Below, in pieces: positions 1 to 14,854 of a DNA stretch of 64,000 bases. Numbering within the stretch: the first letter of the stretch is position 1; each line of letters starts with the position of its first letter. The notes under the pieces are model-generated. The model did not search any database. It worked only from the letters and a program-made list of their open reading frames with translations, and was not told where the DNA came from. The DNA is from Candidatus Poribacteria bacterium (lineage in GTDB: Bacteria; Poribacteria; WGA-4E; WGA-3G), in the NCBI GenBank assembly GCA_022821965.1, contig JAJECN010000015.1, positions 54,785 to 118,784 on the forward strand. Direction: 5' to 3'. Both the position numbers and the translations under genes were made by a program.

Positions 1-1
1 C

Positions 2-454: not shown

Positions 455-472
455 ACCCTAAAGGAGGAAACC

Positions 473-1888
473 ATGAAATTTTCAAATTCTAAAAGGCACG
501 TTTTGTTATTGTTGATGGTGATAGTCGCACTTTTTATCGGTTTCATTTCACACACTGTCGCGCAGGAAGATACAGGTACCGTTACCGGACGTGTTATTGA
601 TCTGGATGGAAACCCAGTTGTCGGGTTGCAGATATTTATCGCGCCTCTTGACCTTGATCCGGATGGACACATGTGGACGGTGTTTTTACCGGATGAGCAC
701 GCACAGTTGCGCCGCGCTTACACAGATCGAGAAGGTCGGTTTTCCGTAACGGATGTTCCTTCAGGTCCGGTATATATCAGTGCCCTTCCAGACGACATAG
801 ATAAACGACTGCCCAAAGACTTTGAAAGAATTGTAGATGAGTTCACGTCCAGGGATTGGACGAAGATCACAGAAGACGACATAGATGCATTCTATTCCAG
901 TAACTTCGGCATGCACTTAGATGATTTTGAACCAGATGTTGAAATTTTATTCATTCGCGTCCGAAGATTCACCTTATACCCGCGCACTGATTACGATCAA
1001 ATCGCTTTTGGTGTCAAATCGGGCGCACATATTAAGGATGTGGAAGTCATCGTACAGCCGAGGATGCGAGTTCGCGGACGTGTCCTTTTCAAAGATGGAA
1101 CACCGCTTACTAATACGCGTGTTGACCTTCGCGCGCCTTCTCGTGATGTGGATGGCTCCGGTTCCGGCGGTGCCAGCGGAGACTTGTGGGTGGATACTGA
1201 AGGTTATTTCGTTCTTTATATAGATGAGAAGAATGATCCAGCGTTCTACACGTTTTCGGTGGAATATCAGGACCTTTCTACAGAGGTTGAACCAATTCGC
1301 CTTGATCCAGGCGATCGATTTGATGGGTTGACGTTGACGTTTGACAGCGAACCGATTCCTCCCAAACGACCCTCTCAAAAAACGGAAATAGACGAGCCTG
1401 AACTATCTTCGCCTCCGCCCGTACCAGAACCATCGTCGAGACCGATGTCTCGTGATGTATGGGTCGTCAATCCTGAAAATGGGCACGCCTATAAAAGAAT
1501 TCACTGCGAAACCCGCGACGATGCGATTGCCCAAGCTACAAAGGAAAAAGCGCATCTCGTCTCAATCAACAACGAAGCGGAACAGGCATGGTTGGAGGCG
1601 GTTTTTGGGCGCAAATTCTATTGGATCGGACTCCGTCGTGTTCCCGCGACTGGTCAACTTGCCAAACGCGCAAAAGAATGGTGGCAGTGGGACAACGGCG
1701 ACTCTATCACCTATGCGAACTGGTTACCCAACGAGTTCTTTTCTGAAGCTTTGGATGCCAGCAAAAGAGATTATGTCGTCATGACGCTTCCTGACGGGAA
1801 ATGGTATCCGGTGAGTCCTGACAGTGTTATCTGGGGTATGACGGAGATGGCAATCCTCGAAAAAGCAAACGTGCTTGATAATCCGTAG
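473..1888 (+). CDS. secreted protein with 2x CarboxypepD_reg-like beta-sandwich, Pro-rich linker and C-terminal C-type lectin domain
   Basis: Strong SD AAGGAGG precedes a signal peptide. GRVIDLDGNPVVG prealbumin-like motif; CTLD motifs WVVNPENGHAY...WIGL...WQWDNGD...YANW. Confidence 0.85.
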   Translation: MKFSNSKRHVLLLLMVIVALFIGFISHTVAQEDTGTVTGRVIDLDGNPVVGLQIFIAPLDLDPDGHMWTVFLPDEHAQLRRAYTDREGRFSVTDVPSGPVYISALPDDIDKRLPKDFERIVDEFTSRDWTKITEDDIDAFYSSNFGMHLDDFEPDVEILFIRVRRFTLYPRTDYDQIAFGVKSGAHIKDVEVIVQPRMRVRGRVLFKDGTPLTNTRVDLRAPSRDVDGSGSGGASGDLWVDTEGYFVLYIDEKNDPAFYTFSVEYQDLSTEVEPIRLDPGDRFDGLTLTFDSEPIPPKRPSQKTEIDEPELSSPPPVPEPSSRPMSRDVWVVNPENGHAYKRIHCETRDDAIAQATKEKAHLVSINNEAEQAWLEAVFGRKFYWIGLRRVPATGQLAKRAKEWWQWDNGDSITYANWLPNEFFSEALDASKRDYVVMTLPDGKWYPVSPDSVIWGMTEMAILEKANVLDNP

Positions 1889-1983
1889 TGTTCTTTTTAT
1901 CTCAACACCCCCCAATTCTTTGAAAAATTATGCACCAGTTTTGCACCGAATAAGCGTCACTATAGGGCAATCGGAGGTAATTC

Positions 1984-4026
1984 ATGAAAAACATCGATGT
2001 TGAACTCATTCACCGTGTGCTTGATGGCGATGATGCCGCTTTCGCTGAGCTTGTGAAAAAATACCAAAAACCGGTTCACACGCTGGTGTGGCGTAAAATT
2101 GGAGATTTCCACATCGCCGAGGAAATTACGCAGGATACATTCTTAAAGGCGTATCAAGAATTGGCAAAGTTGAAAAAACCGCAGAGTTTTGCGAGTTGGC
2201 TTTATGTGATCGCTGCGAACCACTGCAGTACATGGCTGCGTAAAAAGCGTTTACAGACGCAGTCGCTTGAGGAAACGAGTAGTGCTCGCTTAGAAAAGGC
2301 GACATATTCGGGATATGTTGTTGAAGAAAAGGAGCGGACAGCCTTGGAAGCACAACGCGAAGTCGTGAAAAAATTGCTTGCGAAACTCCAAGAGAGTGAG
2401 CGCACAGTGCTCACACTGCATTACTTCGGTGAGATGTCCAGTGCAGAGATTAGCGCGTTTTTGGGTGTGTCAGCGAATACGATAAGGAGTCGTCTCCGTC
2501 GTGCGCAGCAGCGTTTAAGGAAGGACGAACCGATGATTCGAAAAGCCTTGGAAAATTTTCAAATCACGCCGCATCTCACAGAAAATATCATGCGTGAGAT
2601 CGCGCGTATGAAACCCGCTGCACCGTCCGGCAGTAAACCGGTGGTGCCGTGGGCAATTACTGTTTCTACGGTAGCGGTGGTATTTTTGATGTTGGGCGTT
2701 GGAAGCCATCAATACTTGTCGCGTGTCCAAAAACCGTATAATTTCGACGCAAGGTCAGAGATGACAGTTGAACTCATTGAAGCCCCCGTTGTGCTAAATC
2801 TTGAGTCCAAACCGGATATTCGGACTCAACTTGGCGACAACGATGCAATCGGTAGAGACAATAAAACGCATCAGAACCCTGATGCGACGCTATTTTCTTC
2901 CGCCTCTGGGCACATTCTCGATGAAGCGGGAGAACCGGTTTCTGGGATCACAATAGCCATTACACCTGTCGTAGACGGCAATGGGGGTTGGTTCCCGATG
3001 CGGGAACGTGCGCTTGAGGATACGCCTGCACGCCACGTGGAAAGCGATGAGAAAGGACGTTTTACTATCACCGATGCTATCTCTGGTCCCGTGTTGTTGT
3101 CGCTATTTCCATCCGGTGGCGCGGCAGTCCGTATTTTAAAGGTTCAAATCGGCGGATTGGTTTTCTATCCAAGCGGAATGATGGATCGTGGAATTGTATT
3201 TACCCCACCCCCGGGTGAGTCTATTGAGAATATTGAAGTTACGGTGCAGAGTCCGCACATCCGAGGGAGAGTACAACGCATGGATGGGAGACCCCTCGCC
3301 AACACAAAAGTCAACATCCGTTTTCGGGCAATAAGTCAGCACGGTCAAGCTTCTTCGTCTTCAAGTAGGAATACAGATCCTGAGGGGTACTTCGCATACT
3401 ATGCGGAGAGAGATATAGAGCAACCAACATTTTACATGTTTTCTGTGACATATCAGGGACAGACCCTCAATGCAGACCCGATTGTGCTTAAACCTGGAGA
3501 TCCAACACACGACATTGTTTTCACGTTTGATGGTTTGCCAGAAGAGCATTTACAGGCGCGGCGTGGCGGTTTCGCGAGCGCGTCCGCCTCAACAAGTGTT
3601 CGTGCGCAAGATGTGTGGGTAATAAAGCCGAACTTTTCTCTACAAACTGGGGCGCACGCTTACAAGAAGATTAAGTGTGAGAGTTGGGAAGATGCACGAA
3701 CCCAAGCCGCCGCCGAAGGCGCACATCTCGTTACAATCAACGATGCCGCAGAGCAGAAATGGTTGCACATTGTCTTTGGAAGCCAACCGAGTTGGATTGG
3801 ATTGAATGATATTGCGCAAGAGGGAGAGTGGCGATGGGACAACGGCGAACCGCTTACCTATATCAATTGGGGATTTCAAGAACCCAATGATACAAACAAT
3901 GGAGATGAAGATTGTGTCATCATGGGTCCCTCAGGAGAATGGGTAGATGTTAACCCTGCGGACGGCGAATGGCGCTGGATCCGGACAGCAATCATTGAGA
4001 AGGAAACGTTGTCCGTAGAGAAGTAG
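1984..4026 (+). CDS. ECF sigma-70 factor (regions 2 and 4) fused to anti-sigma-like segment, one TM helix, CarboxypepD_reg domains and C-terminal CTLD with EPN/DEDC motifs
   Basis: N-terminal sigma-70 r2 (FLKAYQEL) and r4 (TVLTLHYFGEMSSAEISAFLGVSANTIRSRLRRAQQRLRK). TM helix VVPWAITVSTVAVVFLMLGVG. C-terminal WIGLND..EGEWRWDNGEPLTYINW..EPNDTNNGDEDC. Confidence 0.85.
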   Translation: MKNIDVELIHRVLDGDDAAFAELVKKYQKPVHTLVWRKIGDFHIAEEITQDTFLKAYQELAKLKKPQSFASWLYVIAANHCSTWLRKKRLQTQSLEETSSARLEKATYSGYVVEEKERTALEAQREVVKKLLAKLQESERTVLTLHYFGEMSSAEISAFLGVSANTIRSRLRRAQQRLRKDEPMIRKALENFQITPHLTENIMREIARMKPAAPSGSKPVVPWAITVSTVAVVFLMLGVGSHQYLSRVQKPYNFDARSEMTVELIEAPVVLNLESKPDIRTQLGDNDAIGRDNKTHQNPDATLFSSASGHILDEAGEPVSGITIAITPVVDGNGGWFPMRERALEDTPARHVESDEKGRFTITDAISGPVLLSLFPSGGAAVRILKVQIGGLVFYPSGMMDRGIVFTPPPGESIENIEVTVQSPHIRGRVQRMDGRPLANTKVNIRFRAISQHGQASSSSSRNTDPEGYFAYYAERDIEQPTFYMFSVTYQGQTLNADPIVLKPGDPTHDIVFTFDGLPEEHLQARRGGFASASASTSVRAQDVWVIKPNFSLQTGAHAYKKIKCESWEDARTQAAAEGAHLVTINDAAEQKWLHIVFGSQPSWIGLNDIAQEGEWRWDNGEPLTYINWGFQEPNDTNNGDEDCVIMGPSGEWVDVNPADGEWRWIRTAIIEKETLSVEK

Positions 4027-4082
4027 GTCTTATGCTTTATTCAAGAAGTAGGTCTTATGCTTTATTCAAAAGGAGAGAAATT

Positions 4083-5531
4083 GTGAAACGTTTGAAAGCC
4101 AGTAACAAGGTTTTTGCATCGTTCATAGTAATTGGCTCGCTTTTCATCGGGTTCGCTTCACACAGCATTGCTGACGTGGAGACGGGAACCTTCTCTGGAC
4201 GTGTTGTTGATGCGGAAGGAAATCCTGTTGCGAAATTGCCGGTTATGATTGGACCCGCTATGGTTATGGGACACGGAATTCAATCCGCATTTTTTCCAAG
4301 GCTGTATTCTGCTTCGCGACGTTCACTTACAGGTGCGGATGGACAGTTTTCCATTACCGATATTACGCCGGGAATTTCCTACTTCGGGGCACTTCCTTAC
4401 GATGTAGAGACGCTCTTGCCAGATGAACTTACGGCAAACACTGCAAAGGCTACGGCAGAAAAGGATATCGCTGCGTTCCACGCAAGTGGAGTCATGAAAA
4501 TGGAGGTGGAGGATTTTGAACCCGATGTTGAGATCTTATCTCTCCGCATCCAAGGGATAACGTTCTATCCGCGTACCGATCACGAGAAGATTGGGTTTAG
4601 TGTCAAACCGGGAACCCATATTGAAAATGTAGAGGTCACGGTGCAACCTCGGATGCGAATTCGGGGACGTATCATTTTTAAAGACGAAACACCTCTTGTC
4701 AATGCACGTGTTCACCTCCGCTTCCGCTCTCAGAGTGTGGGTGGTAATCGCAACCGGCAGTCAGGCGGAAAACCGCGAACAGATGCTGCGGGTTATTTCA
4801 TCCATTATCTGGAGGAGAAAGATGATCCGGCGTTCTACACGTTTTCCGTGGAATACCAAGATCTTTCCGCAGAGGCTGGACCGATCCGTCTTGATCCAGG
4901 GGAACGTCTTGACGGAGTAAAGTTTACATTTGATAGTGAACCGGTTCCGCCGCCACAACCACCGTCTCACACTATTCCACAACCACCGCTACATATTGCT
5001 CCACAAGCATTACCTCAGACAAAGACCCTTGATCGTCCATCTGCAGCTACGCCACCGTCGCCGAGAAGATCCATGCCGATGTCAGAAGAGGTGTGGATAG
5101 TCAATCCAGAGAATTTGCATGCCTACAAAAAGATTTATTGTGAAACTCGCAGCGATGCTGTTGCACAAGCAAGGGAAGAAAACGCGCATCTTGTCACTAT
5201 TAACGACGCGGCAGAGCAGACGTGGTTAGCAAAGGTTTTTGAGCATAAATTCTACTGGATCGGGCTCAGTCGCGTTCCACCGGTGGGCACGTCTTCTAAC
5301 GCAACGCAATGGCGATGGGAGAGTGGTGAACCTATCACCTATGCGAATTGGTTACCCGATTATATCTTTGGTGAATCCTTGGATGTTGGTAAGAGGAACT
5401 ATGCTATTATGACGTTCACCGATGGGAAATGGTATGCCGTTGGTCCTGACAGTCTTGTCTGGGGTATTACGGAAATGGCGATCCTCGAAAAAGCAGACGT
5501 GCTTGATAATCCGTCCGCCGCAGAAGAATGA
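4083..5531 (+). CDS. secreted CarboxypepD_reg + C-type lectin domain protein (array paralog)
   Basis: SD AAAGGAGAG then GTG start giving signal peptide VKRLKASNKVFASFIVIGSLFIGFA. Track ORF 4032 has an upstream in-frame extension. CTLD at the C-terminus. Confidence 0.8.
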   Translation: MKRLKASNKVFASFIVIGSLFIGFASHSIADVETGTFSGRVVDAEGNPVAKLPVMIGPAMVMGHGIQSAFFPRLYSASRRSLTGADGQFSITDITPGISYFGALPYDVETLLPDELTANTAKATAEKDIAAFHASGVMKMEVEDFEPDVEILSLRIQGITFYPRTDHEKIGFSVKPGTHIENVEVTVQPRMRIRGRIIFKDETPLVNARVHLRFRSQSVGGNRNRQSGGKPRTDAAGYFIHYLEEKDDPAFYTFSVEYQDLSAEAGPIRLDPGERLDGVKFTFDSEPVPPPQPPSHTIPQPPLHIAPQALPQTKTLDRPSAATPPSPRRSMPMSEEVWIVNPENLHAYKKIYCETRSDAVAQAREENAHLVTINDAAEQTWLAKVFEHKFYWIGLSRVPPVGTSSNATQWRWESGEPITYANWLPDYIFGESLDVGKRNYAIMTFTDGKWYAVGPDSLVWGITEMAILEKADVLDNPSAAEE

Positions 5532-5622
5532 TAACTGTAAAAGGTATTCCTGTCCGAATAAACGTTTACATTAGCGCAATTTACTACCCTAATGCATCAA
5601 TATTACAAAAGGGGAATTTATA

Positions 5623-6864
5623 ATGAATCTTCAAAATTTCAAACAAAATCTTAGATTTTTTGTTGGGATGATAATACTTTCTCTTCTGGTATCATTGTCT
5701 GTTGTTGCTCAACAAGGCGCGACAATTTCTGGACGCGTCGTTGATGAGCTGGGGGATCCGGTTGTCGGCACTTCGGTAGCACTCCATCGGTATAAAGCCA
5801 TAGATGATGATGAGCGACGAGTACGATTCGTGCCTTTCTGGCAAAAGCCGGTCGATTTAGATGGAAGTTTTTCATTCACGAACATCGCGCCAACGGAGTC
5901 CGTTAGTTTCATTGTAGAGGGTGAACGAACGAAAGGAAAAATCCTTTCTATTCAAATGGGTGAACTCACCCTTTATCCGGGGGACCATCCACATTTTGGT
6001 AAAGTAAGGTTTTCCTTGGAAGCAGGGATGGAAATCGAAGACGTTGTCGTCACGGTGAATACTACTATCCAACCACAAGTCCGCGTCCGAGTCGTTTCTG
6101 CCGATGGAACACCGCTTGCCAACGCGAATATACACGTTGCAGTACAACGTAAAGATTTAGATGGAACTGGCTCTGGGAGTTCTGGTAACACAACACAGAC
6201 CGATGCAGAAGGATATTTCGTAGAAGACCTTAGGGTGGATGACGATCCTAAATTCTATGTGCTTGGCGTTGAACACCAAGGACTTTTCGCGAAAGCACCG
6301 CCTTTCATTTTACATGAAGGACAACCACAAGTTCATCTCCTTTTGACCCTCAACGGTAATCCAGATCCACTTGCACGTCCACCAGTACGTCCGCCAATGG
6401 GTCCACCTGCGTCCGCTATTGCACTAACGGCGTTTCTTGATCCACCAACGGTATGGATTGTGAACCCCGCAAATGGACACGCTTACAAAAAGATCCATTG
6501 TAACAGTATAGCAGATGCTACGACCCAAGCCGCTGCAGAAAAGGCGTATCTCGTTGCCATCAATGATGAGGCAGAAAATGAATGGCTGGACGGAATCTTT
6601 GGGCGAGAGAGTTTTTGGATTGGACTCAACGATGCCGCCGAAGAAGGACAGCTGGTTTGGGATAGCGGTGAACCTGTTACCTATACGAATTGGGGTGAAC
6701 ATGAACGAGTAGGTGACAACACTGAGGTGAATGACTACGTTATCTGGGGATTTGGCGGTAGATGGGAAATGGTCGCGCTTGGAAGTCCGCATACGCATTT
6801 TGTCAAAACAGCTATTCTTGAAAGGACAGATGTCCCTGTTGAAACAGCATCTGAAGACAATTAG
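5623..6864 (+). CDS. secreted CarboxypepD_reg + C-type lectin domain protein (array paralog)
   Basis: SD precedes a signal peptide. CTLD motifs [43 protein letters not shown]. Confidence 0.85.
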   Translation: MNLQNFKQNLRFFVGMIILSLLVSLSVVAQQGATISGRVVDELGDPVVGTSVALHRYKAIDDDERRVRFVPFWQKPVDLDGSFSFTNIAPTESVSFIVEGERTKGKILSIQMGELTLYPGDHPHFGKVRFSLEAGMEIEDVVVTVNTTIQPQVRVRVVSADGTPLANANIHVAVQRKDLDGTGSGSSGNTTQTDAEGYFVEDLRVDDDPKFYVLGVEHQGLFAKAPPFILHEGQPQVHLLLTLNGNPDPLARPPVRPPMGPPASAIALTAFLDPPTVWIVNPANGHAYKKIHCNSIADATTQAAAEKAYLVAINDEAENEWLDGIFGRESFWIGLNDAAEEGQLVWDSGEPVTYTNWGEHERVGDNTEVNDYVIWGFGGRWEMVALGSPHTHFVKTAILERTDVPVETASEDN

Positions 6865-6930
6865 CGACAACGCAACGTTGGGTTGGCTTTCAGTTTAATC
6901 CAATCTGCATTTTTATAAGGAGAATTTACG

Positions 6931-8265
6931 ATGAATCACCGAAGTTTCACACACATTGCATACCTTTTCAGTGTTGTAATAGTACTCTTTCTCGTTGCAT
7001 CCGTCCCTTGTATCGCACAGAACGGGACAGCACTCTCTGGTACCGTCCTTGACATGGAAGGGAAGCCGATTGCTGGATTTGCCATTGGGTTGTTACAAGG
7101 GGCTCTAATATCCATGACTGATGAAAAGGGTGCTTTCACTTTCACCAATATCCCCGCCGGACCGGTTCAAATTGCGATTCCAACGCAGCCGTCCAAAGAG
7201 AATGAAGAACCTATGTTCGATTTTGAGGCGGATGATGAAATCCTCTCAATCAAAATCAGGGGTATAACGCTTTATCAAGACACGCGTCCGCCTTTCGGCG
7301 GCATCGAGTTCGGTGTCAAATCGAGCAGCCATATCAAGGATGTAGCGGTTACCGTGCGTCCCCGAACGCGCATTCGGGCGAAAGTTATTTTCAAAGATGG
7401 AAAGCCGCTAACGAACGCCTCTGTTTCCCTGATAGTTGAGGGCAACGGTAGGGCGACCGGAGGAGCTACCACGGATGCCGAGGGATATTTTGTAAGTTAT
7501 TTCGATAAAAACGAGGTCCCAGCACACTACACGGTCTCCGTGAAATATAAAGGACTCTCGGCGAAATCAGAACTATTTCTGCTTGAAGAGGGGGCGCGCT
7601 ATGACGATTTAGTTTTAACGCTCGATGGTAATGTGCCGCCTGCTGCCCCACAAAAGGAATCTCTGCCGAAAGTTTTAGATAAATTGAGTGATGGATTGAC
7701 ACCACCTGAGAAACCGACACTCACCGAAACAGACCGCTCTGTACCAACTAACAAGGGGCAGGTTAATATTCAAGAGGTAGAAGTAAAACCTCGTGTAACA
7801 GGGGCTGAACCTACTAAACCCGTTAGGCAGATGCGACCGCCGTGGGAGAAAGATGCGTGGGCTGTGAACCCTGCAAATGGACACGGTTATAAAAAGATCC
7901 GGTGCGACAGTCTGGATGAGGCGCGAGATCGCGCTGCCGCTCAAGGCGCGTTCCTTCTTGCGATTAACGACGAAGCGGAGCAGAAATGGATTTCGGGATT
8001 CTTTGGGAATCATCTCTATTGGATTGGACTCAGCGATGCTGAAAACGAAGGGGAATGGGTATGGCAGAACGGTGATCCGCTCACCTATACGAATTGGGGA
8101 CCCAAGCACAGTTTCCCGCGGAGTCCGCTTTCACAGGAAAAGAAGGACAGTGCTGTGATGACGTTTGCGAATGGACAGTGGCATGCCGTTGGTCCCGGTG
8201 ACGTGCTCTGGCGTATGACGAAGATGGCAATCCTTGAAAAAGCAGACGTGCTTGATGGAAAATAA
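6931..8265 (+). CDS. secreted CarboxypepD_reg + C-type lectin domain protein (array paralog)
   Basis: SD AAGGAGA precedes a signal peptide. C-terminal CTLD; its 3' end is near-identical to that of the next gene. Confidence 0.85.
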   Translation: MNHRSFTHIAYLFSVVIVLFLVASVPCIAQNGTALSGTVLDMEGKPIAGFAIGLLQGALISMTDEKGAFTFTNIPAGPVQIAIPTQPSKENEEPMFDFEADDEILSIKIRGITLYQDTRPPFGGIEFGVKSSSHIKDVAVTVRPRTRIRAKVIFKDGKPLTNASVSLIVEGNGRATGGATTDAEGYFVSYFDKNEVPAHYTVSVKYKGLSAKSELFLLEEGARYDDLVLTLDGNVPPAAPQKESLPKVLDKLSDGLTPPEKPTLTETDRSVPTNKGQVNIQEVEVKPRVTGAEPTKPVRQMRPPWEKDAWAVNPANGHGYKKIRCDSLDEARDRAAAQGAFLLAINDEAEQKWISGFFGNHLYWIGLSDAENEGEWVWQNGDPLTYTNWGPKHSFPRSPLSQEKKDSAVMTFANGQWHAVGPGDVLWRMTKMAILEKADVLDGK

Positions 8266-8321
8266 TATTTCTCGGACTCCAGTTTATTTGATGTCTCAAC
8301 ATTCAAAAAAGGAGAATCTAC

Positions 8322-9722
8322 ATGAATCTTCAACGTCTCGGTTTAAAACTTGGGATCCTCGTCGGCATTGTGGTATTCTCCTCTACTGTCGTCACTAAAG
8401 TGCAGGCAGGTAAACGCCCACAAATTCGCGCACGGGTCGTCTTTGCCGATGGAACACCGCTTGCTAACGCTGAAATATATGTTTTGGTGATACGCAGAAA
8501 CTTAGATGCAGGCGGCTCCGGAGGTTCAGGAAGTACAATGCAGACCGATGCCGAGGGATACTTTGTGGAAACCCTTAACGTAGGTAATAGATCCAAATTT
8601 TATGTGGTTGGTGTTGCGTATCAGAGGTATCTCGCGAAAGTCCCCCCTTTTATTTTGCAGGAGGGACAACCAGAAGTTCATCTACTCTTGACACTTGATG
8701 ACAATCGCGTTCCGATAGATAGATGGAACCCTGACCGAGAACACACAGCATTAGAAGCGTTTCTTGAGCCACCGACGGTATGGGTAGTGAATCCTATAAA
8801 TGGGCACGCTTATAAAAAGATTTATTGCCACGATGTAATGGATGCCCTGACCCAAGCCGCTACAGAAGGTGCGTATCTTGTTTCCATTAACGATGAAGCG
8901 GAGGAGATATGGATACAAGGAGTCTTTGAACCAGATAGTTTTTGGATCGGACTCAGCGATGTTGCTAAGGAGGGACAGTGGGTCTGGCACAGCGGTGAAC
9001 CGGTTACGTATACTAACTGGGGAGAGAATAAACAGGACGGTGGTAACACCGAGGTGAACGATTACGTCATCTCTGACTTTGGTGCCGAATGGCGGGCGGT
9101 TGCGCCGGGGGATGAACATACCCCTTTTACCCAAGAGGCAATCCTCGAAAGAGCAGATGTGCCTGTTAAGACACTATCTAATGAACAGACAAATGCCCAG
9201 CCAACGGGTGTCTCAATACCACCTGATAAAACTACCACCGCTCAAACCGGTCGTTTTGTCCCATCTCGGCAAATAAAGTCACTTTTGGAGATAGGTGTAT
9301 GGGCTGTAAACCCGGCAAATGGGCATGCTTACATAAGTATTCCGTGCAAAAGTCTGGACGATGCGCGAGATAGTGCCGCTGCCCAAGGTGCACACCTCGT
9401 CGCGATTAACGACGCAGCGGAACAGCAGTGGCTTTTAGGACTTTTTGGGAATCACCTTTATTGGATCGGACTCAGTGATGCCAAAAAAGAGGGTGAATGG
9501 ATATGGCAGAACGGTGAACCACTTACCTATAAGAATTGGGGATCCAAGTATAAATTCCCTCGTAGTTCTCTCTCACTGGAAGAGAAAGACAGTGCTGTTA
9601 TGACGTTTGCGAATGGACAGTGGCATGCTGTTGGTCCCGGTGACGTGCTCTGGCGTATGACGAAGAGGGCGATCCTTGAAAAAACAGACGTGTTTGACAG
9701 TTCCTCTGTGAAAGAAAAATAA
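8322..9722 (+). CDS. secreted mosaic paralog with two tandem C-type lectin domains
   Basis: Signal peptide, then a single prealbumin-like domain (5623-type). CTLD 1 resembles the 5623 gene's CTLD and CTLD 2 resembles the 6931 gene's CTLD. Confidence 0.85.
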
Positions 9723-9972
9723 TAGTTTGAATCTACAATTTTTCGTTTCGTGCTCACTTCTCCCCAGACAATTTTTTCCAATTAATTTGTCAGTCATTCC
9801 CACAAAGTCTACAGAGACATTCAGTTTTCCTGTGGCATTCAAAATATGTAGAACTGCCACAAGGTTCTCTTGCTAACGACCCATAACTGATAACTCCCGC
9901 GTGGAACGGGTTTCTTCGGGAAACACACAAGGAAAACACCCCGATCTCTCCCGCATAAGATGGAAATGGCTT

Positions 9973-10722
9973 ATGAGCCACCGAAACCTTTTACATAGAA
10001 TATTGGTAATCCCCCTTACAGTTACAATTTGTGCTTTCTTGGGTTGTGGTGAAACTATAGAAACTATAGAGATAGACAGAGCGAGTTTTTCAGGACGCGT
10101 TGTTGATGAAGTTGGAAATCCAGTTGCAGGGCTCGCGTTAGTCATTGTCCCGTGTAAAGTTGATGATGAGGCCGATATAGCGGTTTACGACGCGGAGACT
10201 AATGATACAGGTCATTTCTCTATTACGGGTATCTATCCCGGAAAAGCTCATTTCATGTTAGAGCCTGGGTATCAAAACGGTCTACCTCTTGAGCCGGAAT
10301 ATCAACTCCTTTCCTTTAAAATCGGGGTTTCTGCTTACTCTCCGAAAGACTTGTCTCCTGATCCTTGCACTCAGGATACCTTTTTTATTTCGCCGGGTGC
10401 GCGAATCGAAAACGTAGAGGTCGCGGTGCGCCTCCGGATGCGGATTCGCGCGAAAGTCGTTTTTGCAGATGGCACCCCCTTGGTAGATAAAGAGGTTAGT
10501 CTCAACATAAGAGCGTTCGATTTACAAGGAAGTAGTGTTGTTGGAGGTATCCAGGGGTCTGTGCAAACCGATGCTCAGGGATACTTTGTGCAGTATGTAG
10601 ATAGGAACGAGGCAATCGGCTATAGGGTGTCAGTTGAATATAAATGGCTTTGCTCAACATCGGAGATATTTATATTCGGAGTTGAGGAACGTCGCGAAGA
10701 TCTGATTTTGAAGTTAAGTTGA
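9973..10722 (+). CDS. lipoprotein paralog with CarboxypepD_reg-like domains, lacking the lectin domain
   Basis: Lipobox AFLG-C after MSHRNLLHRILVIPLTVTI. GRVVDEVGNPVAG motif. The protein ends before any CTLD. Start chosen at the in-frame ATG that gives a canonical lipoprotein signal; track ORF begins at GTG 9901. Confidence 0.7.
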   Translation: MSHRNLLHRILVIPLTVTICAFLGCGETIETIEIDRASFSGRVVDEVGNPVAGLALVIVPCKVDDEADIAVYDAETNDTGHFSITGIYPGKAHFMLEPGYQNGLPLEPEYQLLSFKIGVSAYSPKDLSPDPCTQDTFFISPGARIENVEVAVRLRMRIRAKVVFADGTPLVDKEVSLNIRAFDLQGSSVVGGIQGSVQTDAQGYFVQYVDRNEAIGYRVSVEYKWLCSTSEIFIFGVEERREDLILKLS

Positions 10723-10844
10723 AGTTAACAAGTGCACCCAAGTGAAGTGTGCCCTTTTTAAATCCAGACACCTGTAAACTGATTCATACCTTAGCTTGGA
10801 CGACATGCAGAGAAGATTCTACCCACATAAAGGGGAGGGTAACT

Positions 10845-11642
10845 ATGAGTTGTCAAAATTTTTTACATGAAATAGTGTTAATTTCCTTTGTAATTGCAAT
10901 CTGTACCTTATTGGGTTGTGGTGAAACTGAAGATACGTCCTCCTTGGCATTGTCGGAAACCGTGATAGATGGGGACACAGCAAGTTTTTCAGGGCGCGTT
11001 GTTGATGAAAATGGGAATCTGGTTGCTGGGCTTGCCTTGGTCATTCAGCCTCTTGAAGTCGACGATAATACTGGGGGGTGGATGTACGGTCCGACTTTGG
11101 AAGCGGAGACCGATGATGCAGGACATTTCTCTATCACAAATATTCGTCCTGGGCAATTTCAATTCATGTTGGCACGTGACTATCGGAACAGTCTGCTTTT
11201 TGAAACGGAATATCAACTCCTTTCTGTCAAAATCGGGACTTTTGCCTATCATCCGGGCGACCGGTTCCCTCCTGCTTTTACTAAAGATACTCTTTCTATC
11301 ACTCCAGGCGCGGAAATAGAAAACGTAGAGGTCACGGTACGACTCCGAATGCGGGTTCGCGCGAAAATTGTTTTTGCAGATGGCACGCCCTTGGCAAACA
11401 AGGAAGTTAAAATCAGCATAAAAACGCGAGATTTACATGGAGATGGGAGTGGGAGTATTGGGTCTATATTGCAAACCGATGTCCAAGGGTACTTCATACA
11501 GTACGTGGATAGAGGTCGGGCGACCTCCTACACCGTATCGGTAGAATATAAAGAACTTTCTGCAACGTCAGAGAAATTTGTACTCAATGTCGGGGAACGT
11601 CGCGAAGATTTAATTTTGAAATTATCGGGTCCTCCCCAGTAA
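10845..11642 (+). CDS. lipoprotein paralog with CarboxypepD_reg-like domains, lacking the lectin domain
   Basis: SD AAAGGGGAGGG then ATG. Lipobox TLLG-C. About 60% identical to the 9973 gene. Confidence 0.75.
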   Translation: MSCQNFLHEIVLISFVIAICTLLGCGETEDTSSLALSETVIDGDTASFSGRVVDENGNLVAGLALVIQPLEVDDNTGGWMYGPTLEAETDDAGHFSITNIRPGQFQFMLARDYRNSLLFETEYQLLSVKIGTFAYHPGDRFPPAFTKDTLSITPGAEIENVEVTVRLRMRVRAKIVFADGTPLANKEVKISIKTRDLHGDGSGSIGSILQTDVQGYFIQYVDRGRATSYTVSVEYKELSATSEKFVLNVGERREDLILKLSGPPQ

Positions 11643-11687
11643 AGTGATGATAACGGCACTAAAGCGTATGAATTAGATGTGGTCGCT

Positions 11688-12767
11688 TCACGAAAGTAGA
11701 TTTCCACAGTAGGCACAAGCGTCTAACTTGACATCTCCATTAAACGTTTCACGCTCCGGCGTTAAGTAGGTCTCATAGTTCGTAACGCAATTTGGGTTTT
11801 CACACGTCCGAGTAGAGGTGCCAATGTCTCGTTTCGGGGGTTGGGTCAAGATGAGTTGTTCCAATCCCATGAGACTGGCGATGAGTGCCATCCGAACCGG
11901 TACTGCGTTGGCGGATTGCTCGAAATAGGCGGCACGTGGGTCGTCGTCTAACTCATAAGCGAGTTCATTGACGCGCGGGAGTGGATGCATAATCATCGCG
12001 TCCGGCTTTGCGTTTTTCATGACTTCTGCATTCAGTAGATAACTGCCGCGCACGGCGGCTGGATCCATGTTCGATGGCAGTCGTTCCTCCTGAAGCCGAT
12101 TCACATAGATGACATCCAACCTCTCAATCACTTCTGTGATATTTTCTACTTCAAGCGGTATCTGTCCATGACACTGTTCGAGTTGCGCGAGCAGCCACGG
12201 TGGCATCTGTAGCGGTTGTGGCGCGATGTGAACCAGTTGCCCACCGAATCTCGCAACTGCCAAAGCAAAGGAGTGTGCCGCTCGTCCAAACTGCAGATCG
12301 CCGCAGATACCGACGGTTAACCCTTCTACTTTCGATTTTCGGCGTATAATCGTATATAGGTCCGCGAGTGCTTGTGTCGGATGTGTATGGCTGCCATCAC
12401 CGCCGTTGATGACGGGGATATGCGCGTATTTTGCCATAACACGTGCTGCGCCTGCCCAGTTATGCCGCACCACAATGATGTCGGCATAATTCGTCACCAT
12501 CCGCGCAGTGTCGGCGAGCGTTTCGCCTTTGGCGGTAGAAGTCGCGCTTGGGTCAGCGAAACCGAGAGTGCCACCATTGAGGCGTTCCATCGCACTTTCA
12601 AACGAAAGCCGGGTACGTGTACTCGGTTCATAGAAGAGCGTTGCGAGCAATTTGCTCCTGCTGATGCCCGCCCATGTCTCTAATTGCGACTGCATGCCTC
12701 CTGCAAGTCGAAAAATCTGTTCAATCTCAAAATTCGACAAATCGTCGAGTGTTATCAGATGCCGCAT
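11688..12767 (-). CDS. pyrB: aspartate carbamoyltransferase catalytic chain fused to a PyrI-type C-terminal zinc-ribbon domain
   Basis: STRTR and HPTQALAD ATCase motifs with SD AAGGAGG. Extra C-terminal ~45 aa C-ENPNC...C-AYC resembles the PyrI zinc domain (CPNSNC...CKYC). Confidence 0.85.
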   Translation of the reverse strand: MRHLITLDDLSNFEIEQIFRLAGGMQSQLETWAGISRSKLLATLFYEPSTRTRLSFESAMERLNGGTLGFADPSATSTAKGETLADTARMVTNYADIIVVRHNWAGAARVMAKYAHIPVINGGDGSHTHPTQALADLYTIIRRKSKVEGLTVGICGDLQFGRAAHSFALAVARFGGQLVHIAPQPLQMPPWLLAQLEQCHGQIPLEVENITEVIERLDVIYVNRLQEERLPSNMDPAAVRGSYLLNAEVMKNAKPDAMIMHPLPRVNELAYELDDDPRAAYFEQSANAVPVRMALIASLMGLEQLILTQPPKRDIGTSTRTCENPNCVTNYETYLTPERETFNGDVKLDACAYCGNLLS

Positions 12768-12809
12768 TTTCCTCCTTTAAGCACGTGTTGTGAGTGTATC
12801 TTTTCGTTC

Positions 12810-13766
12810 TTATCTGCTTAAAGATTGCATGAACGCTTCAAGACTGTCGGATTGAGGAACCGCAAGTAACAATTGCTTGAGGTCTTGCAAATCGTCTATA
12901 GATTCAAGAGCAGGCTTTAAGGCTTGGACTGCATCAGTCTCAAACTGCATCCCGAGCAATGCGATAATGTTTTCAATGGTGCCTTTTTTTTCACCTTGTT
13001 CGATGCCTTGTTCAATACCTTGTTCAATACCTTGTTCAATACCTTGTTCGATGCCTTCCTTGAGTCCCTCTTGTTTAGCCTCTATTTTTGCCTCCTGAAT
13101 GTAGTGTTGAAAAAAAGGAGATTCTTGCATGATACCCTCCGGTAAAAGTTGTTTAATCAGTTGGGGTTCATAAACTAAACCGCCAAAAACACCCAGGGCT
13201 GCCAATAAAGTATCTCGAGTATGTCGGTCTGTGCGTGCTGATGCTGTTACATCAATACATTTTTCCAACCAACGGTTCGGATTTGTCCCTTCTGGCGGTT
13301 TCATCAACGGTGTGAACGGCAGTAATCCCGGTGCCTGCATTTCCAAAATTGATTGTCCATCTATCTCAATCAACTTAATCACTTTGTAGCGCAATGTGTA
13401 TTCATAACCGGAATCCTTGTAAGCATAGTAGCCTTTATCATATCTGCCTGCTTTGGGGTGCAGATAGAGAACGTTAGAGTAAACAGGTATCTCATGTAAA
13501 TTCATCAGAAAACCGTTATATCCTGCAATCCGGGACCACATCGGTTTTCTGCTATTATCTGCTTGGACCTCGGTATGAAGTATCACTGTTGCGTTGTCGA
13601 GCTGCACCTTCAAGGTACTGTCATTTTGATGCGTCTTGAGTGTTGGTTCCTCAGTTTCAAGTCTCTCCAGAACTGTGATGTTTGAATGCCCCACCATGAA
13701 TTCTGCGAATTCTTGTGAATATTCCAGCATAATATATTTCGCTGCGTTGTCATAATGCTGTGCCAT
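12810..13766 (-). CDS. Rpn-family recombination-promoting nuclease / putative transposase (PDDEXK_7) with C-terminal GIEQ repeat domain
   Basis: VILHTEVQ (D/E..Q nuclease motif) and a C-terminal (GIEQ)x5 DUF4351-like repeat. Start uncertain; an alternative upstream start at 13841 would overlap pyrD. Confidence 0.6.
   Translation of the reverse strand: MAQHYDNAAKYIMLEYSQEFAEFMVGHSNITVLERLETEEPTLKTHQNDSTLKVQLDNATVILHTEVQADNSRKPMWSRIAGYNGFLMNLHEIPVYSNVLYLHPKAGRYDKGYYAYKDSGYEYTLRYKVIKLIEIDGQSILEMQAPGLLPFTPLMKPPEGTNPNRWLEKCIDVTASARTDRHTRDTLLAALGVFGGLVYEPQLIKQLLPEGIMQESPFFQHYIQEAKIEAKQEGLKEGIEQGIEQGIEQGIEQGIEQGEKKGTIENIIALLGMQFETDAVQALKPALESIDDLQDLKQLLLAVPQSDSLEAFMQSLSR
12995..13054. repeat. 5 tandem copies of a 12-bp unit (CTTGTTCAATAC/CTTGTTCGATGC) encoding the (GIEQ)5 repeat of the Rpn-family protein
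   Basis: Direct reading of the sequence. The repeat lies inside the CDS, is in-frame and is not a CRISPR array. Confidence 0.9.
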
Positions 13767-13815
13767 ATTGTTATTATACACCAGATTTTCAGGAGATACA
13801 ACTTTTTCACAATAA

Positions 13816-14745
13816 TTACGAATCGACCTGCAAGCTACCAATCAATTCATTAATCGATTTCATGTTTGCTTCTTTGAGGTAGGCGTGAATCCCTTTTACG
13901 ACTTCTATTGATGCGTGTGGATTAACGAAGTTCGCTGTCCCGATTGCGACGGCGGAGGCACCGGCGATAAAAAATTCAATGGCATCTGTCGCAGTCATAA
14001 TGCCTCCCATGCCGATAATTGGGATTGAGACGTTTTTGTAAACCTCCCAAACCAATCGGAGTGCCACGGGCTTTATCGCAGGACCGGAGAGTCCTCCTGT
14101 CACGTTTGCAAGTTCCGGTTTTCGTGTTTCTGCATTAATCGCCATACCGAGAAGCGTGTTGATGGCGGAAAGCGCGTTCGCACCCGCATCCTCGACGGCA
14201 CGTGCAATAATGCTAATATCTGTAACGTTTGGGGAGAGTTTCACTAAGAGTGGTAGGTGTGTGTTTGCTCGAACCTCTGTGACAAGTTGATGTGCCAACG
14301 TTGCATCAACACCGAAACTCATACCACCGCAATCTAAGTTCGGACAGGAGATGTTGAGTTCCACCCCCGCGATGCCATCTGCCGTGTTTAGTTTTTCGAT
14401 CACTGTCAGGTATTCTTTGACCGTTTTGCCACAGACGTTGACAATTACCGGTACATCGAAATCACGGAGGTAGGGAAGTTTCTCCGAGATAAAACCGTCT
14501 ACGCCGACGTTTTGAAGTCCAATCGCATTGAGCATACCGGAGGGTGTTTCCATGATGCGTTGCATCGGATTGCCGGGCCACGGCACGCTTGTGATGCCTT
14601 TAACGACGACCGCACCGAGTCGGTTCAGATCCACGAAATCCACGTATTCACTGCCGTAGCCGAAGGTGCCGGATGCCGTCATGACGGGATTGCGCATCTG
14701 TATCCCGCCGATATTCACGCTGAGTGGTAAGTCTGTTGTGTCCAT
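13816..14745 (-). CDS. pyrD: dihydroorotate dehydrogenase, class 1 catalytic subunit
   Basis: Motifs NPVMTASGTFGYG, LNISCPN, GGMSFG. Start chosen by homology at MDTTDLPL; the ORF extends in-frame to 14790. Confidence 0.8.
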   Translation of the reverse strand: MDTTDLPLSVNIGGIQMRNPVMTASGTFGYGSEYVDFVDLNRLGAVVVKGITSVPWPGNPMQRIMETPSGMLNAIGLQNVGVDGFISEKLPYLRDFDVPVIVNVCGKTVKEYLTVIEKLNTADGIAGVELNISCPNLDCGGMSFGVDATLAHQLVTEVRANTHLPLLVKLSPNVTDISIIARAVEDAGANALSAINTLLGMAINAETRKPELANVTGGLSGPAIKPVALRLVWEVYKNVSIPIIGMGGIMTATDAIEFFIAGASAVAIGTANFVNPHASIEVVKGIHAYLKEANMKSINELIGSLQVDS

Positions 14746-14854
14746 TTTATCTAAATGAGGGTAGTTTTGCTGTTCTTCATGAATCTTCATGAAAAGTTTA
14801 GCACCAATATATCTCAGAAGTCAAGCAATTTTCCGCATTCTTTTGGTAAGAGGT

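Follow-up and report, generated by a model that had tools for sequence, protein, structure and literature searches.

The double-CTLD gene at 8322-9722 of the 64,000-nt stretch of DNA analysed here (the window) appears to be an old and conserved gene that arose by fusion of copies of the two genes upstream of it, where CTLD stands for the animal-type C-type lectin-like domain. The near-identity of its 3' end with that of the adjacent gene at 6931-8265 appears to be a genuine short gene-conversion tract. We consider it highly probable that the old fusion was inherited vertically, that a 79-nt conversion with the 6931 gene came later, and that independent events took place in other lineages.

In homologue searches with the fusion-gene protein, the matches bearing names and genome records were Candidatus Poribacteria, a phylum mainly known as sponge symbionts. 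The genes at 5623, 6931 and 8322 belong to a conserved array of tandem paralogues that are secreted or lipoprotein-like. The array holds 8-9 paralogues that combine the bacterial beta-sandwich with an animal-like CTLD, and their basic architecture is a signal peptide, two CarboxypepD_reg-like beta-sandwiches and one CTLD. This single-CTLD, two-sandwich architecture is found in every other array member (473, 1984, 4032 and a partial gene at the window start), as well as in many array genes of other genomes. One array paralogue is fused to an ECF sigma factor. The gene order, comprising the 5623-type gene (A), the 6931-type gene (B), the fusion gene and CTLD-less paralogues, followed on the opposite strand by OTCace, DHO_dh and DUF6785, is the same in L001 (a 5.85-Mb chromosome record), L028 (a 3.5-Mb contig), L029 and L030. 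In L002, L032 and L033 the order is rearranged, yet B still directly follows A, as it does in all genomes having both genes. Full-text searches of an open-access corpus returned no paper describing a Poribacteria array of this kind, and on Poribacteria and C-type lectins the same corpus returned sponge-lectin and immunity reviews only. The three genes and the parts of the fusion gene are as follows.

5623-6864, + strand: A-type single-CTLD gene, with a signal peptide, two CarboxypepD_reg-like beta-sandwiches and a CTLD at 6451-6825
6931-8265, + strand: B-type single-CTLD gene, with a signal peptide, two beta-sandwiches, a long Pro/Thr-rich linker and a CTLD at 7855-8241
8322-9722, + strand: fusion gene of 466 aa, with a signal-peptide-like N-terminus, one beta-sandwich, an A-type CTLD, a linker and a B-type CTLD
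8421-8693, + strand: beta-sandwich (CarboxypepD_reg-like), corresponding in the alignment to the second sandwich of the 5623 gene; weak Pfam PF13620 match
8778-9152, + strand: CTLD-a, A-type by domain alignment and tree
9153-9188, + strand: remnant of the A-type C-terminal tail, 12 residues aligning with the 5623 tail TDVPVETASEDN-stop
9204-9296, + strand: remnant of the B-type pre-CTLD linker, aligning with 6931-type TGGSTPPEKPTLTETDRSVPT...VRQMRPPWEKDA
9297-9683, + strand: CTLD-b, B-type by domain alignment and tree

Pfam detected CarboxypepD_reg and one Lectin_C domain in each of the 5623-6864 and 6931-8265 genes (PF00059 scores of 39.5 and 48.2 bits, respectively; cut-off 22.6), and two Lectin_C stretches in the 8322 gene (90.4 bits against the same profile). 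The AlphaFold model of the fusion protein comprises a beta-sandwich at residues 34-124 (pLDDT ~87), two CTLD folds and a disordered linker at 284-324, with pLDDT values mostly of 70-90 inside domains. The best Foldseek matches of this predicted structure were multi-CTLD structures of the mannose-receptor family (E about 1e-11). Target TM-scores were 0.65-0.76 against solved animal CTLDs and about 0.7 for the single CTLDs of SRCL, CD23 and MGL. By Pfam profile threshold and predicted fold, the two domains of the 8322 gene are assigned to the CTLD family.

Classical Ca2+-dependent carbohydrate-recognition domains have an EPN or QPD motif and a WND motif, which make up the Ca2+/sugar site, and four conserved disulfide cysteines. 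In the CTLD alignment, the corresponding positions read NWGENKQDG...EWRAV in A-type and NWGSKYKFP...QWHAV in B-type domains, so that EPN/QPD and WND are absent, and each A-type and B-type CTLD has a single cysteine, in KKI-x-C, versus the canonical four. Based on these motifs and cysteines, we rejected classical C-type lectin status for both types. Only two paralogues still have an EPN-like motif: the sigma-fused one (QEPND...EWVDV) and that of the partial first gene (DEPHD).

The two halves of the fusion gene have different closest paralogues. Self-BLASTN aligned 6073-6852 with 8418-9179 at 69% nucleotide identity and 7845-8255 with 9287-9697 at 82%. The front half is closest to the 5623 gene, and the back half is closest to the 6931 gene, which is also its conversion partner. 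A preliminary description of this DNA had assigned the front half to the 5623 type at about 75% amino acid identity; the type holds, and the identity is 60% (174/290; 8322 residues 5-288; 58-60% by tblastn). CTLD-a alone is 66% identical to the 5623 CTLD, its nearest relative, and 45-54% to all others. The match of the second CTLD to that of the 6931 gene, also described there, was borne out at 79% amino acid and 82% nucleotide identity. In domain trees of 73 CTLDs from 10 Candidatus Poribacteria loci, built by neighbour-joining on short alignments rather than by maximum likelihood and with 200 bootstraps, the A-type and B-type clades each had a support of 200/200, with 8322a grouping with the 5623 type and 8322b with the 6931 type (200/200 each). 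The two CTLDs of the 8322 gene thus have different neighbours rather than grouping together, and the mosaic reading passes the domain-tree check that had been proposed for it.

The junction between the halves is also recognisable. The first beta-sandwich of the 5623 gene is missing from the 8322 gene in the alignment. At 9153-9188, where the A-type gene stops, the fusion gene reads on. The B-type linker remnant that follows has lost ~25 aa internally relative to the 6931 type, and its local alignment (score 46, shuffle p = 0.0005) shows a pattern that is kept in 8 orthologues. As expected for a fusion of adjacent duplicates, the closest paralogues of the halves differ and are colinear with the adjacent gene pair, and both the A tail and the B-type linker can be made out at the junction.

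Several observations show that the fusion is old. Full-length two-CTLD orthologues with 63-89% amino acid identity and 100% coverage occupy the same position in Poribacteria genomes that were assembled independently, and fusion orthologues are present in at least nine other loci and in many more database proteins. For comparison, orthologues of the 5623 gene in L001 and L003 are 83-85% identical at the amino acid level. Across genomes, the 5623-type CTLDs and the 8322a CTLDs each form a monophyletic clade (182/200 and 194/200). Writing A' and B' for the copies in the fusion gene, dS is 1.44 between A and A' and 1.08 between B and B' upstream of the tract, both saturated. The same A+B domain order is found in the P0049 family, which has ~50% identity and a different genomic context (L034; used for domain order only). 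Domain 1 of this family falls inside the A clade (192/200), without a settled position there, and domain 2 is sister to the B clade (199/200). The 6931 and 8322b B-type clades are not reciprocally monophyletic over all genomes (31/200 and 19/200), which fits recurrent conversion and also weak signal.

The preliminary description had explained the mosaic gene by recent modular shuffling of lectin cassettes. A gene built recently in this genome from its neighbours would account for a mosaic similarity that is colinear with the two upstream genes and for a near-identical 3' end. However, amino acid identity to these neighbours is no more than 60% for the A half and about 63-79% for the B half, dS is saturated, and A and A' form separate clades across genomes. 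Since the fusion gene has conserved orthologues, down to 63% identity, recent shuffling is refuted, and we regard it as extremely improbable. It is decidedly unlikely that, conversely, the two-CTLD form is ancestral and gave rise to the single-CTLD A and B genes by fission. The divergent P0049 family would agree with this, as it already has A and B in order, with a domain 2 that is sister to all B-type CTLDs and a domain 1 that has no settled place within A. Yet all other array members are single-CTLD genes with two sandwiches, the B gene would need to have gained a signal peptide and two sandwiches de novo, and the position of P0049 domain 2 outside the B copies can be put down to their concerted evolution. 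Because P0049 domain 1 has no settled place in the A clade, several fusions, or one still older fusion, are conceivable. Finally, tandem paralogues are a classic source of misassembly, and the window is known as assembled sequence rather than from reads. Against a chimeric contig or collapsed repeat stand the same architecture and junction in independent assemblies from different samples, including the chromosome-level L001 record and multi-Mb contigs, and a converted state that is common to L028, which differs from the window by ~5% in flanking sequence. As independent assemblies have the same gene in the same place, the assembly error that had been raised as an alternative is excluded, and as the copies differ by 18% overall, repeat collapse is implausible. 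An artefactual origin of the double-CTLD gene or of the shared tract thus has a vanishingly small probability.

At their 3' ends, the 6931 gene and the fusion gene share the following segments.

8146-8224, + strand: conversion tract, 6931 copy; 26 residues, C-terminal strands of the CTLD
9588-9666, + strand: conversion tract, fusion-gene copy; 6931-type states at five diagnostic sites (window-equivalent 8212 and 8221-8224)

The last ~110 nt of both genes had been described as about 93% identical. At the in-frame offset of 1442 nt, 8148-8253 and 9590-9695 differ at 6/106 positions (94.3% identity), which agrees with that figure; the partner of 8148-8255 is 9590-9697, and not 9594-9700 as had been given. 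The identical antisense ORFs that had been noted are present (8085-8333 and 9527-9781, minus strand) and are a mere reverse-strand image of the shared coding sequence. Upstream, 7846-8143 has 66/298 mismatches at the same offset (77.9%). The last ~30 nt before the stop codon retain gene-specific states, and the near-identical block is a 79-nt tract ending at 8224, with 2/79 mismatches versus 65/291 upstream. When mismatch positions were permuted, a 79-nt window with two or fewer mismatches had p = 0.0004; with third codon positions only, the test was marginal (p = 0.046) for a tract that is short and encodes a strongly conserved peptide. The tract is bounded by unconverted diagnostic sites (8145 and 8225/8251), and only from 8146 to 8224 is the diagnostic-site string of the window's 8322b domain (W_83b) 6931-type in place of 8322b-type.

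We compared this pair among genomes, leaving the mis-registered L002 domain 83yb out of the ungapped nucleotide comparison matrices. Over the tract, 6931 and 8322b differ at 2/79 positions in both the window (W) and L028, at 13-17/79 in L001, L029 and L030, and at 9-15/79 in more distant genomes. Of the 26 third positions, 1-2 differ in W and L028, 6-8 in L001, L029 and L030, and 5-9 over other genomes. Upstream of the tract, the identity of the pair is 78-83% in all genomes except L032. The dS of the pair is 0.13 in the tract versus 1.08 upstream; the tract value is about equal to the orthologue dS between W and L028 (0.16-0.20) and below that between W and L001 (0.33-0.38). In neighbour-joining trees of the upstream segment, the four-way group {W_69, L28_69, W_83b, L28_83b} received 0/300 and the orthologous W and L28 83b pair 298/300, versus 255/300 for the four-way group in the tract. 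A bounded segment of high identity, incongruent tract and flank trees and a lowered dS, together with the diagnostic sites, thus uphold the earlier suggestion of gene conversion at the 3' end. The conversion took place before this genome and L028, its nearest relative, diverged. It is therefore a dated example, common to two lineages and absent from the three sister lineages L001, L029 and L030.

Regarding the donor, the five diagnostic sites in the 8322 copy are 6931-type, and at 8206 both window copies are 8322b-type, so the state at the diagnostic sites reflects either a mosaic or more than one event. Part of the 'converted' state could be ancestral, since the L031 orthologue of the fusion gene also has the amino acid motif WRMTK. 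We rejected WRMTK versus WNTTRQ as an argument for direction, as outgroups show WR[MT]TK to be probably ancestral for both paralogues. Four-taxon site-pattern counts were weakly informative (Fisher p = 0.003-0.18), because conversion erased paralogue-specific differences and created few shared-derived ones. The diagnostic-site and bootstrap analyses were more decisive than these site patterns. In the unconverted L001, the pair already shares an identical run of 36 nt at window-equivalent 8154-8189, a candidate seed for the exchange.

Could the 3' identity have arisen by constraint, through purifying selection on the C-terminal peptide or a nucleotide-level element at gene ends, with no recombination? 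The tract peptide is nearly invariant in all B-type CTLDs, and over the last ~50 nt several genomes show 80-92% identity between paralogue types (473, 4032 and 6931) that elsewhere share ~55-60%. However, the paralogue pair differs in L001, L029 and L030, third positions included, and the nucleotide sequence of the tract is therefore not constrained. The fall in dS and the incongruence of the tract and flank trees also argue against constraint, which we consider very unlikely. BLASTN aligned 1830-1879 with 8207-8256 at 92%, and a test of same versus different codons at identical residues was significant for no cross-type pair (p = 0.2-1.0). A wider homogenisation of 3' ends over paralogue types was rejected; this similarity is put down to the conserved MAILEKADVLD peptide and is not distinguishable from amino acid conservation. 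In the C-type-lectin-fold target genes of diversity-generating retroelements (DGRs), the variable region is typically at the 3' end; template and variable repeats are about 100-150 nt long with about 90% identity. If a DGR or other targeted mutagenesis acted on the CTLD 3' ends, the two blocks would be variable and template repeats, and their position in lectin-fold genes, size and identity are as in known DGRs. Yet the scan for reverse transcriptase (RVT) domains, which took in the array genes and 30 further ORFs of the window (29 of the 33 listed outside the array with at least 200 aa, plus a 343-aa ORF at 12810-13841), yielded none. Moreover, the six mismatches in 8148-8253 (G>T, C>T, T>G, A>G, G>A and C>T) are not adenine-specific, and both blocks are coding, within genes conserved as orthologues. 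Based on the scan and the mismatches we rejected a DGR, which is extremely improbable here.

Besides the gene conversion in the window and L028, the B-type pair has recombined in other lineages. The two B-type CTLDs of L032, 2.8 kb apart, share a perfectly identical run of 140 nt (equivalent to 7987-8126). No fusion gene is present in L003, whose 6931-type gene has an 8322-type tail (TDVLDNPPVKEK) at its end, a hybrid as expected from deletion by crossover between two B-type CTLDs. L002 has two fusion genes in tandem. Given these independent events, the pair of CTLD-b and the 6931 CTLD evolves partly in concert; the A-type pair does not.

By parsimony, we infer that the adjacent pair of a 5623-type A and a 6931-type B was first duplicated as a unit. 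Loss of the A' stop codon, the intergenic spacer, the B' signal peptide and both B' sandwiches would have joined the C-terminal tail of A' to the linker and CTLD of B', and A' would also have lost its first sandwich. The fusion would then have been passed down vertically as an orthologous gene across Poribacteria. Being direct repeats 1442 bp apart, the two B-type CTLDs would still recombine. In the common ancestor with L028, a short-patch, non-reciprocal homologous exchange, presumably by RecA-type recombination, may have homogenised at most 79 nt (8146-8224 and 9588-9666), with transfer mostly from 6931 to 8322. The exchange was probably seeded by the stretch that is nearly invariant in all B-type copies.

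An animal-type CTLD family in Poribacteria thus evolves by the standard means of tandem arrays, namely duplication, deletion fusion, conversion of short tracts and deletion by crossover. Annotators can treat the double-CTLD gene as a real, conserved group of orthologues and not an artefact, and should not read orthology directly from trees of 6931-type and 8322b CTLDs. Biologically, the array is of more interest than the conversion. The CTLDs may have a role in ligand binding. It is conceivable, although improbable in our view, that the array serves a sponge symbiont as a means of diversifying its host-facing lectin-like proteins, where conversion repeatedly re-assorts predicted ligand surfaces, with the array under the control of the array's own membrane-tethered ECF sigma factor. 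This would make it a bacterial, recombination-driven counterpart of animal lectin-receptor repertoires, and the sensor of the sigma factor would be one of the same lectin ectodomains. On this reading, recurrent short-patch conversion would strike different parts of the CTLD depending on the lineage, including the strand with the sugar site in classical CTLDs.

The process is of a known kind, ordinary tandem-family evolution, in a new gene family. As in fusions by deletion between adjacent tandem duplicates, the parental gene order is kept, and the upstream C-terminal tail survives at the junction along with some of the downstream linker. Unlike a recent deletion fusion, the event is old, and no unfused A'-B' intermediate pair was found in the genomes examined. 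In the lpl tandem paralogue cluster of Staphylococcus aureus, a conserved sequence within the ORFs is a site of homologous recombination (Tsuru & Kobayashi 2008, PMC2568036). The lpl cluster likewise consists of tandem secreted or lipoprotein paralogues with a presumed host interaction, the 5' and 3' parts of its ORFs have incongruent phylogenies, and rearrangements, deletions and duplications vary between genomes. By the same account, repeated central-block crossovers shuffle two variable halves in lpl, whereas here mostly short tracts in one domain pair are affected; strains were compared there and species-level lineages here; and the CarboxypepD_reg-like sandwiches with an animal-type CTLD are an unrelated protein family. 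Short non-reciprocal transfers between nearby surface-protein paralogues, with mosaic genes and partly concerted evolution, are also reported for Brucella omp2a/omp2b (PMC7050475) and Helicobacter pylori outer-membrane paralogues (PMC3960876). There, the transfers are described within species and tied to antigenic or host-range variation, unlike the single tract fixed here in two related lineages, with no sign of high-frequency or programmed switching. With the animal mannose-receptor family (Endo180/uPARAP, MR and DEC-205) the fusion protein shares consecutive CTLDs in one polypeptide. It differs in a sequence identity of 13-30%, in CTLDs without EPN/QPD and WND and with one cysteine versus four, and in N-terminal modules that are bacterial beta-sandwiches. 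The resemblance to this family is one of fold and arrangement, not of membership.

Paralogous genes lie head to tail on the forward strand over positions 1-11654 of the window. Their domain content, by Pfam matches, is as follows.

ending at 469, +, partial first gene of the array: CarboxypepD_reg-like beta-sandwich and Lectin_C
473-1888, +, CarboxypepD_reg-like beta-sandwich and Lectin_C
1984-4026, +, CarboxypepD_reg-like beta-sandwich and Lectin_C
4032-5531, +, CarboxypepD_reg-like beta-sandwich and Lectin_C
5623-6864, +, CarboxypepD_reg-like beta-sandwich and Lectin_C
6931-8265, +, CarboxypepD_reg-like beta-sandwich and Lectin_C
8322-9722, +, CarboxypepD_reg-like beta-sandwich and two Lectin_C stretches
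9901-10722 and 10749-11642, +, shorter genes: CarboxypepD_reg-like beta-sandwich without Lectin_C

The two shorter genes stop directly after the second beta-sandwich, without a C-type lectin-like domain (CTLD), and their N-termini carry an LGCGE motif resembling a lipoprotein lipobox; some relatives (L028, L029 and L030) have three such genes. A tblastn search with three array proteins found no extra array copies elsewhere in the 64 kb. The 3' neighbours of the array are minus-strand ORFs (11688-12767 and 13816-14790) whose counterparts in related loci carry OTCace and DHO_dh domains. Between them lies an ORF of 343 aa (12810-13841, minus strand) that contains a (GIEQ)n repeat and gave no Pfam match at 1e-5. 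In L028, L029 and L030, OTCace and DHO_dh adjoin with nothing between them; L033 carries, at the equivalent place, an unannotated gene of 318 aa. The window's ORF may be a lineage-specific insertion. Other window genes match GH95, GH32, sulfatase, ankyrin and VHL-like families in Pfam. Among the ORFs 44948-45886 (−), 56312-57538 (+) and 57608-61927 (+) are an ankyrin-repeat protein, a VHL beta domain match (E = 8e-7) and a protein of 1439 aa that matches a sacsin domain. These eukaryote-like proteins, like the GH95, GH32 and sulfatase genes, are consistent with life in association with a host and with glycan degradation. Given such neighbours, their domain types and their signal-peptide-like N-termini, the array proteins are probably secreted or surface ligand-binding proteins of a host-associated bacterium.

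The preliminary description saw the 8322 gene as a mosaic of its neighbours, and self-BLASTN of the first 12 kb of the window recovered both paralogous blocks (7845-8255 versus 9287-9697, 82% over 411 nt; 6073-6852 versus 8418-9179, 69%). When the eight window CTLDs were delimited and aligned, the first CTLD of the gene (CTLD-a, 8778-9152) shared 66% of its amino acids with the 5623 CTLD and 45-54% with the others. The second (CTLD-b, 9297-9683) matched the 6931 CTLD, as proposed, at 79% amino acid and 82% nucleotide identity. The observation holds up except for one overstated figure: the front half shares 60% rather than about 75% of its amino acids with the 5623 protein (174/290), whose first beta-sandwich it lacks. 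At an in-frame offset of 1442 nt, 8148-8253 and 9590-9695 differ at six of 106 positions (94% identity, against the roughly 93% reported for the gene ends), compared with 66 of 298 (78%) for 7846-8143 just upstream. The identical antisense ORFs noted there are present as well; they mirror the common coding sequence and need no further explanation.

An AlphaFold model of the 8322 protein (mean pLDDT 70, pTM 0.70) has an N-terminal helix in the signal-peptide region, a beta-sandwich (residues 34-124) and two CTLD folds with a disordered linker (284-324). Its best Foldseek matches in the PDB were fragments with several CTLDs from mannose-receptor family proteins; among single animal CTLDs, those of SRCL, CD23 and MGL matched at a target TM-score of about 0.7 and 13-30% identity. 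EPN/QPD and WND motifs define classical calcium-dependent sugar-binding domains. In the alignment of window CTLDs, the domains of the 5623 type (A-type) and 6931 type (B-type) have neither, and one cysteine; an EPN-like motif is kept only in the partial first gene and the 1984 gene (QEPND). By profile and fold the A-type and B-type domains are CTLDs, but they fail the defining features of the classical class.

The 1984-4026 paralogue also encodes an N-terminal ECF sigma factor (Sigma70_r2, r4, Sigma70_ECF), followed by a hydrophobic segment (around residues 218-240), a beta-sandwich and the QEPND-bearing CTLD. Counterparts of 682-683 aa occur in L001 (83% amino acid identity), L028 and L029. 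Its combination of sigma factor, membrane span and extracytoplasmic carbohydrate-binding-type domain resembles the ECF52 group, which is described as exclusive to Actinobacteria and as also having a zinc finger (PMC5826349); unlike in that group, no zinc finger was seen in this paralogue. The paralogue could combine sensing and regulation of the array in a single protein.

Searching with the 8322 protein returned dozens of full-length matches (100% coverage, 430-484 aa, 63-89% identity) plus another group at about 50%; the small number of named matches came from Candidatus Poribacteria. Scanning species-representative genomes yielded Poribacteria loci. The window's order, in which 5623-type gene, 6931-type gene, two-CTLD gene and CTLD-less paralogues are followed on the other strand by OTCace, DHO_dh and DUF6785, recurs in L001 (chromosome record of 5.85 Mb), L028 (contig of 3.5 Mb), L029 and L030. 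Their genes are about 82-89% identical in amino acids to the window's. The same genes are rearranged in L002, L031, L032 and L033. The two-CTLD gene is a conserved orthologue that has been assembled independently many times, and its presence at the matching place in independent assemblies excludes a chimeric contig or assembly error.

A profile made from the window's domains picked out 73 CTLDs in the window and nine other loci. In their neighbour-joining tree (200 bootstraps), the 5623-type CTLDs fell into one clade with CTLD-a of the fusion gene (200/200) and the 6931-type CTLDs into another with CTLD-b (200/200). The two CTLDs of the 8322 gene thus group with different neighbours and not together, which confirms its mosaic ancestry. 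In the A clade, 5623-type (182/200) and CTLD-a sequences (194/200) were each monophyletic across genomes, which implies that the A duplication is older than the split of these lineages. Synonymous sites are saturated, with dS 1.44 in the A pair and 1.08 in the B pair, the latter measured 5' of the tract described below. A second two-CTLD family, P0049, has its first domain in the A clade (192/200) and its second as sister to the B clade (199/200). These observations, with the 63-89% identity of the orthologues, indicate an old fusion and contradict the suggestion that recent modular shuffling made the gene. One P0049-family gene (L034, 9001-10377, about 50% identical, A-type then B-type) sits in an unrelated gene neighbourhood. 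Two database matches to the 8322 protein, P0021 (68%) and P0062 (49%), are seemingly on one contig, and both families may occur in one genome.

The linker between the two CTLDs starts with 12 residues that match the C-terminus of the 5623 protein (TDVPVETASEDN before the stop codon) and ends like the 6931-type pre-CTLD linker (TGGSTPPEKPTLTETDRSVPT...VRQMRPPWEKDA), with about 25 residues missing. Its similarity to the 6931 type (p = 0.0005 against 2000 shuffles) is a pattern kept in eight orthologues. In every genome having both, the A-type gene lies directly 5' of the B-type gene. The simplest history would be duplication of this two-gene unit, followed by a deletion from the stop codon of the duplicate A through the signal peptide and both sandwiches of the duplicate B; the duplicate A would additionally have lost its first sandwich. 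The order of events is inferred. Fission of an original two-CTLD gene is less parsimonious, because every other array member has the single-CTLD layout.

The 3' ends have a different history. In an in-register comparison of B-type CTLDs from ten loci, the window's two copies share 78% of positions with each other 5' of 8146, and each shares 90-95% with its own orthologues (L028, L029, L030, L001). Over 8146-8224 (9588-9666 in the 8322 gene), the pair differs at 2/79 positions in the window and 2/79 in L028, its nearest relative, compared with 13-17/79 in L001, L029 and L030 and 9-15 in more distant genomes. Nucleotide trees are incongruent: the four window and L028 sequences group together in 255/300 replicates for the tract and 0/300 for the upstream segment, where the orthologous CTLD-b pair is recovered in 298/300. 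At diagnostic sites, fixed between the paralogue types in unconverted genomes, the window's 8322 copy is of its own type at 26/28 up to 8145, of 6931 type at 8212 and 8221-8224, and of its own type again at 8251. Both copies carry the 8322 state at 8206, so the product is a mosaic or more than one event occurred. Permutation of mismatch positions gave p = 0.0004 when every site was used and p = 0.046 with third positions alone.

Constraint on nucleotides or peptide cannot explain the tract, since 13-17 differences are tolerated at this place in sister genomes. The data also rule out a diversity-generating retroelement: the mismatches show no adenine specificity, and a scan of the array genes and 30 other ORFs (29 of the 33 listed of at least 200 aa, plus 12810-13841) revealed no reverse transcriptase domain. 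The near-identical block is a real gene-conversion tract. The earlier interpretation was half right: conversion among paralogues stands, but the fusion is ancient and conserved and not a product of recent shuffling. Tract dS (0.13) is similar to that between window and L028 orthologues (0.16-0.20) and lower than between window and L001 (0.33-0.38), which dates the exchange to after divergence from the L001 group and to around or before that from L028. In the unconverted L001 pair, the stretch equivalent to 8154-8189 is already identical over 36 nt and could plausibly have seeded homologous pairing. The tract spans the part of the domain that corresponds to the WND strand and the last strand; to read function into this position would be speculation.

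Gene ends are also alike more widely. The last ~50 nt of 473-, 4032- and 6931-type genes are 80-92% mutually identical in several genomes (in the window, 1830-1879 versus 8207-8256 and 5391-5507 versus 8140-8256), unlike the rest of these domains (about 55-60%). A codon-level control could not separate wider homogenisation here from conservation of the peptide MAILEKADVLD.

The B-type pair has recombined elsewhere too. Across all genomes, 6931-type and CTLD-b sequences are not reciprocally monophyletic (31/200 and 19/200), consistent with partly concerted evolution. The B-type CTLDs of L032 (8322b-type and 6931-type, at 9976-10362 and 12774-13160, 2.8 kb apart) share a perfectly identical 140-nt run (window-equivalent 7987-8126), with 90% identity upstream and only 81% in the equivalent of the window's tract. 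This is an independent conversion, apparently more recent, that struck another part of the domain. In L003 the fusion gene is missing; the 6931-type gene there (12031-13383) keeps that type to the equivalent of 8253 and then has a 15-nt-longer 8322-type tail (TDVLDNPPVKEK), through which the BLASTN match to the window's 8322 gene runs on. This looks like a deletion by crossover between the two B-type CTLD direct repeats. About 1.7 kb of unrelated DNA follows the hybrid; within it, a 322-aa ORF (13627-14595) is transposase-like by sequence. L002 has the two-CTLD gene twice in tandem (10461-11762 and 11796-13178). The inter-CTLD linker of the first copy is only about 15 residues (AHTPVKQMRPLSEIG), with the 6931-type QMRP motif still visible.

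The process is a familiar one for tandem arrays of surface-protein paralogues. Short-tract conversion between adjacent paralogues is known in Brucella omp2a/omp2b and in Helicobacter outer-membrane proteins. We found no description of a Poribacteria CTLD array in the open-access full-text literature. The closest documented analogue that we found is the S. aureus lpl cluster, where recombination is mediated by a conserved block inside the genes, and trees from the 5' and 3' portions of ORFs are incongruent (PMC2568036).
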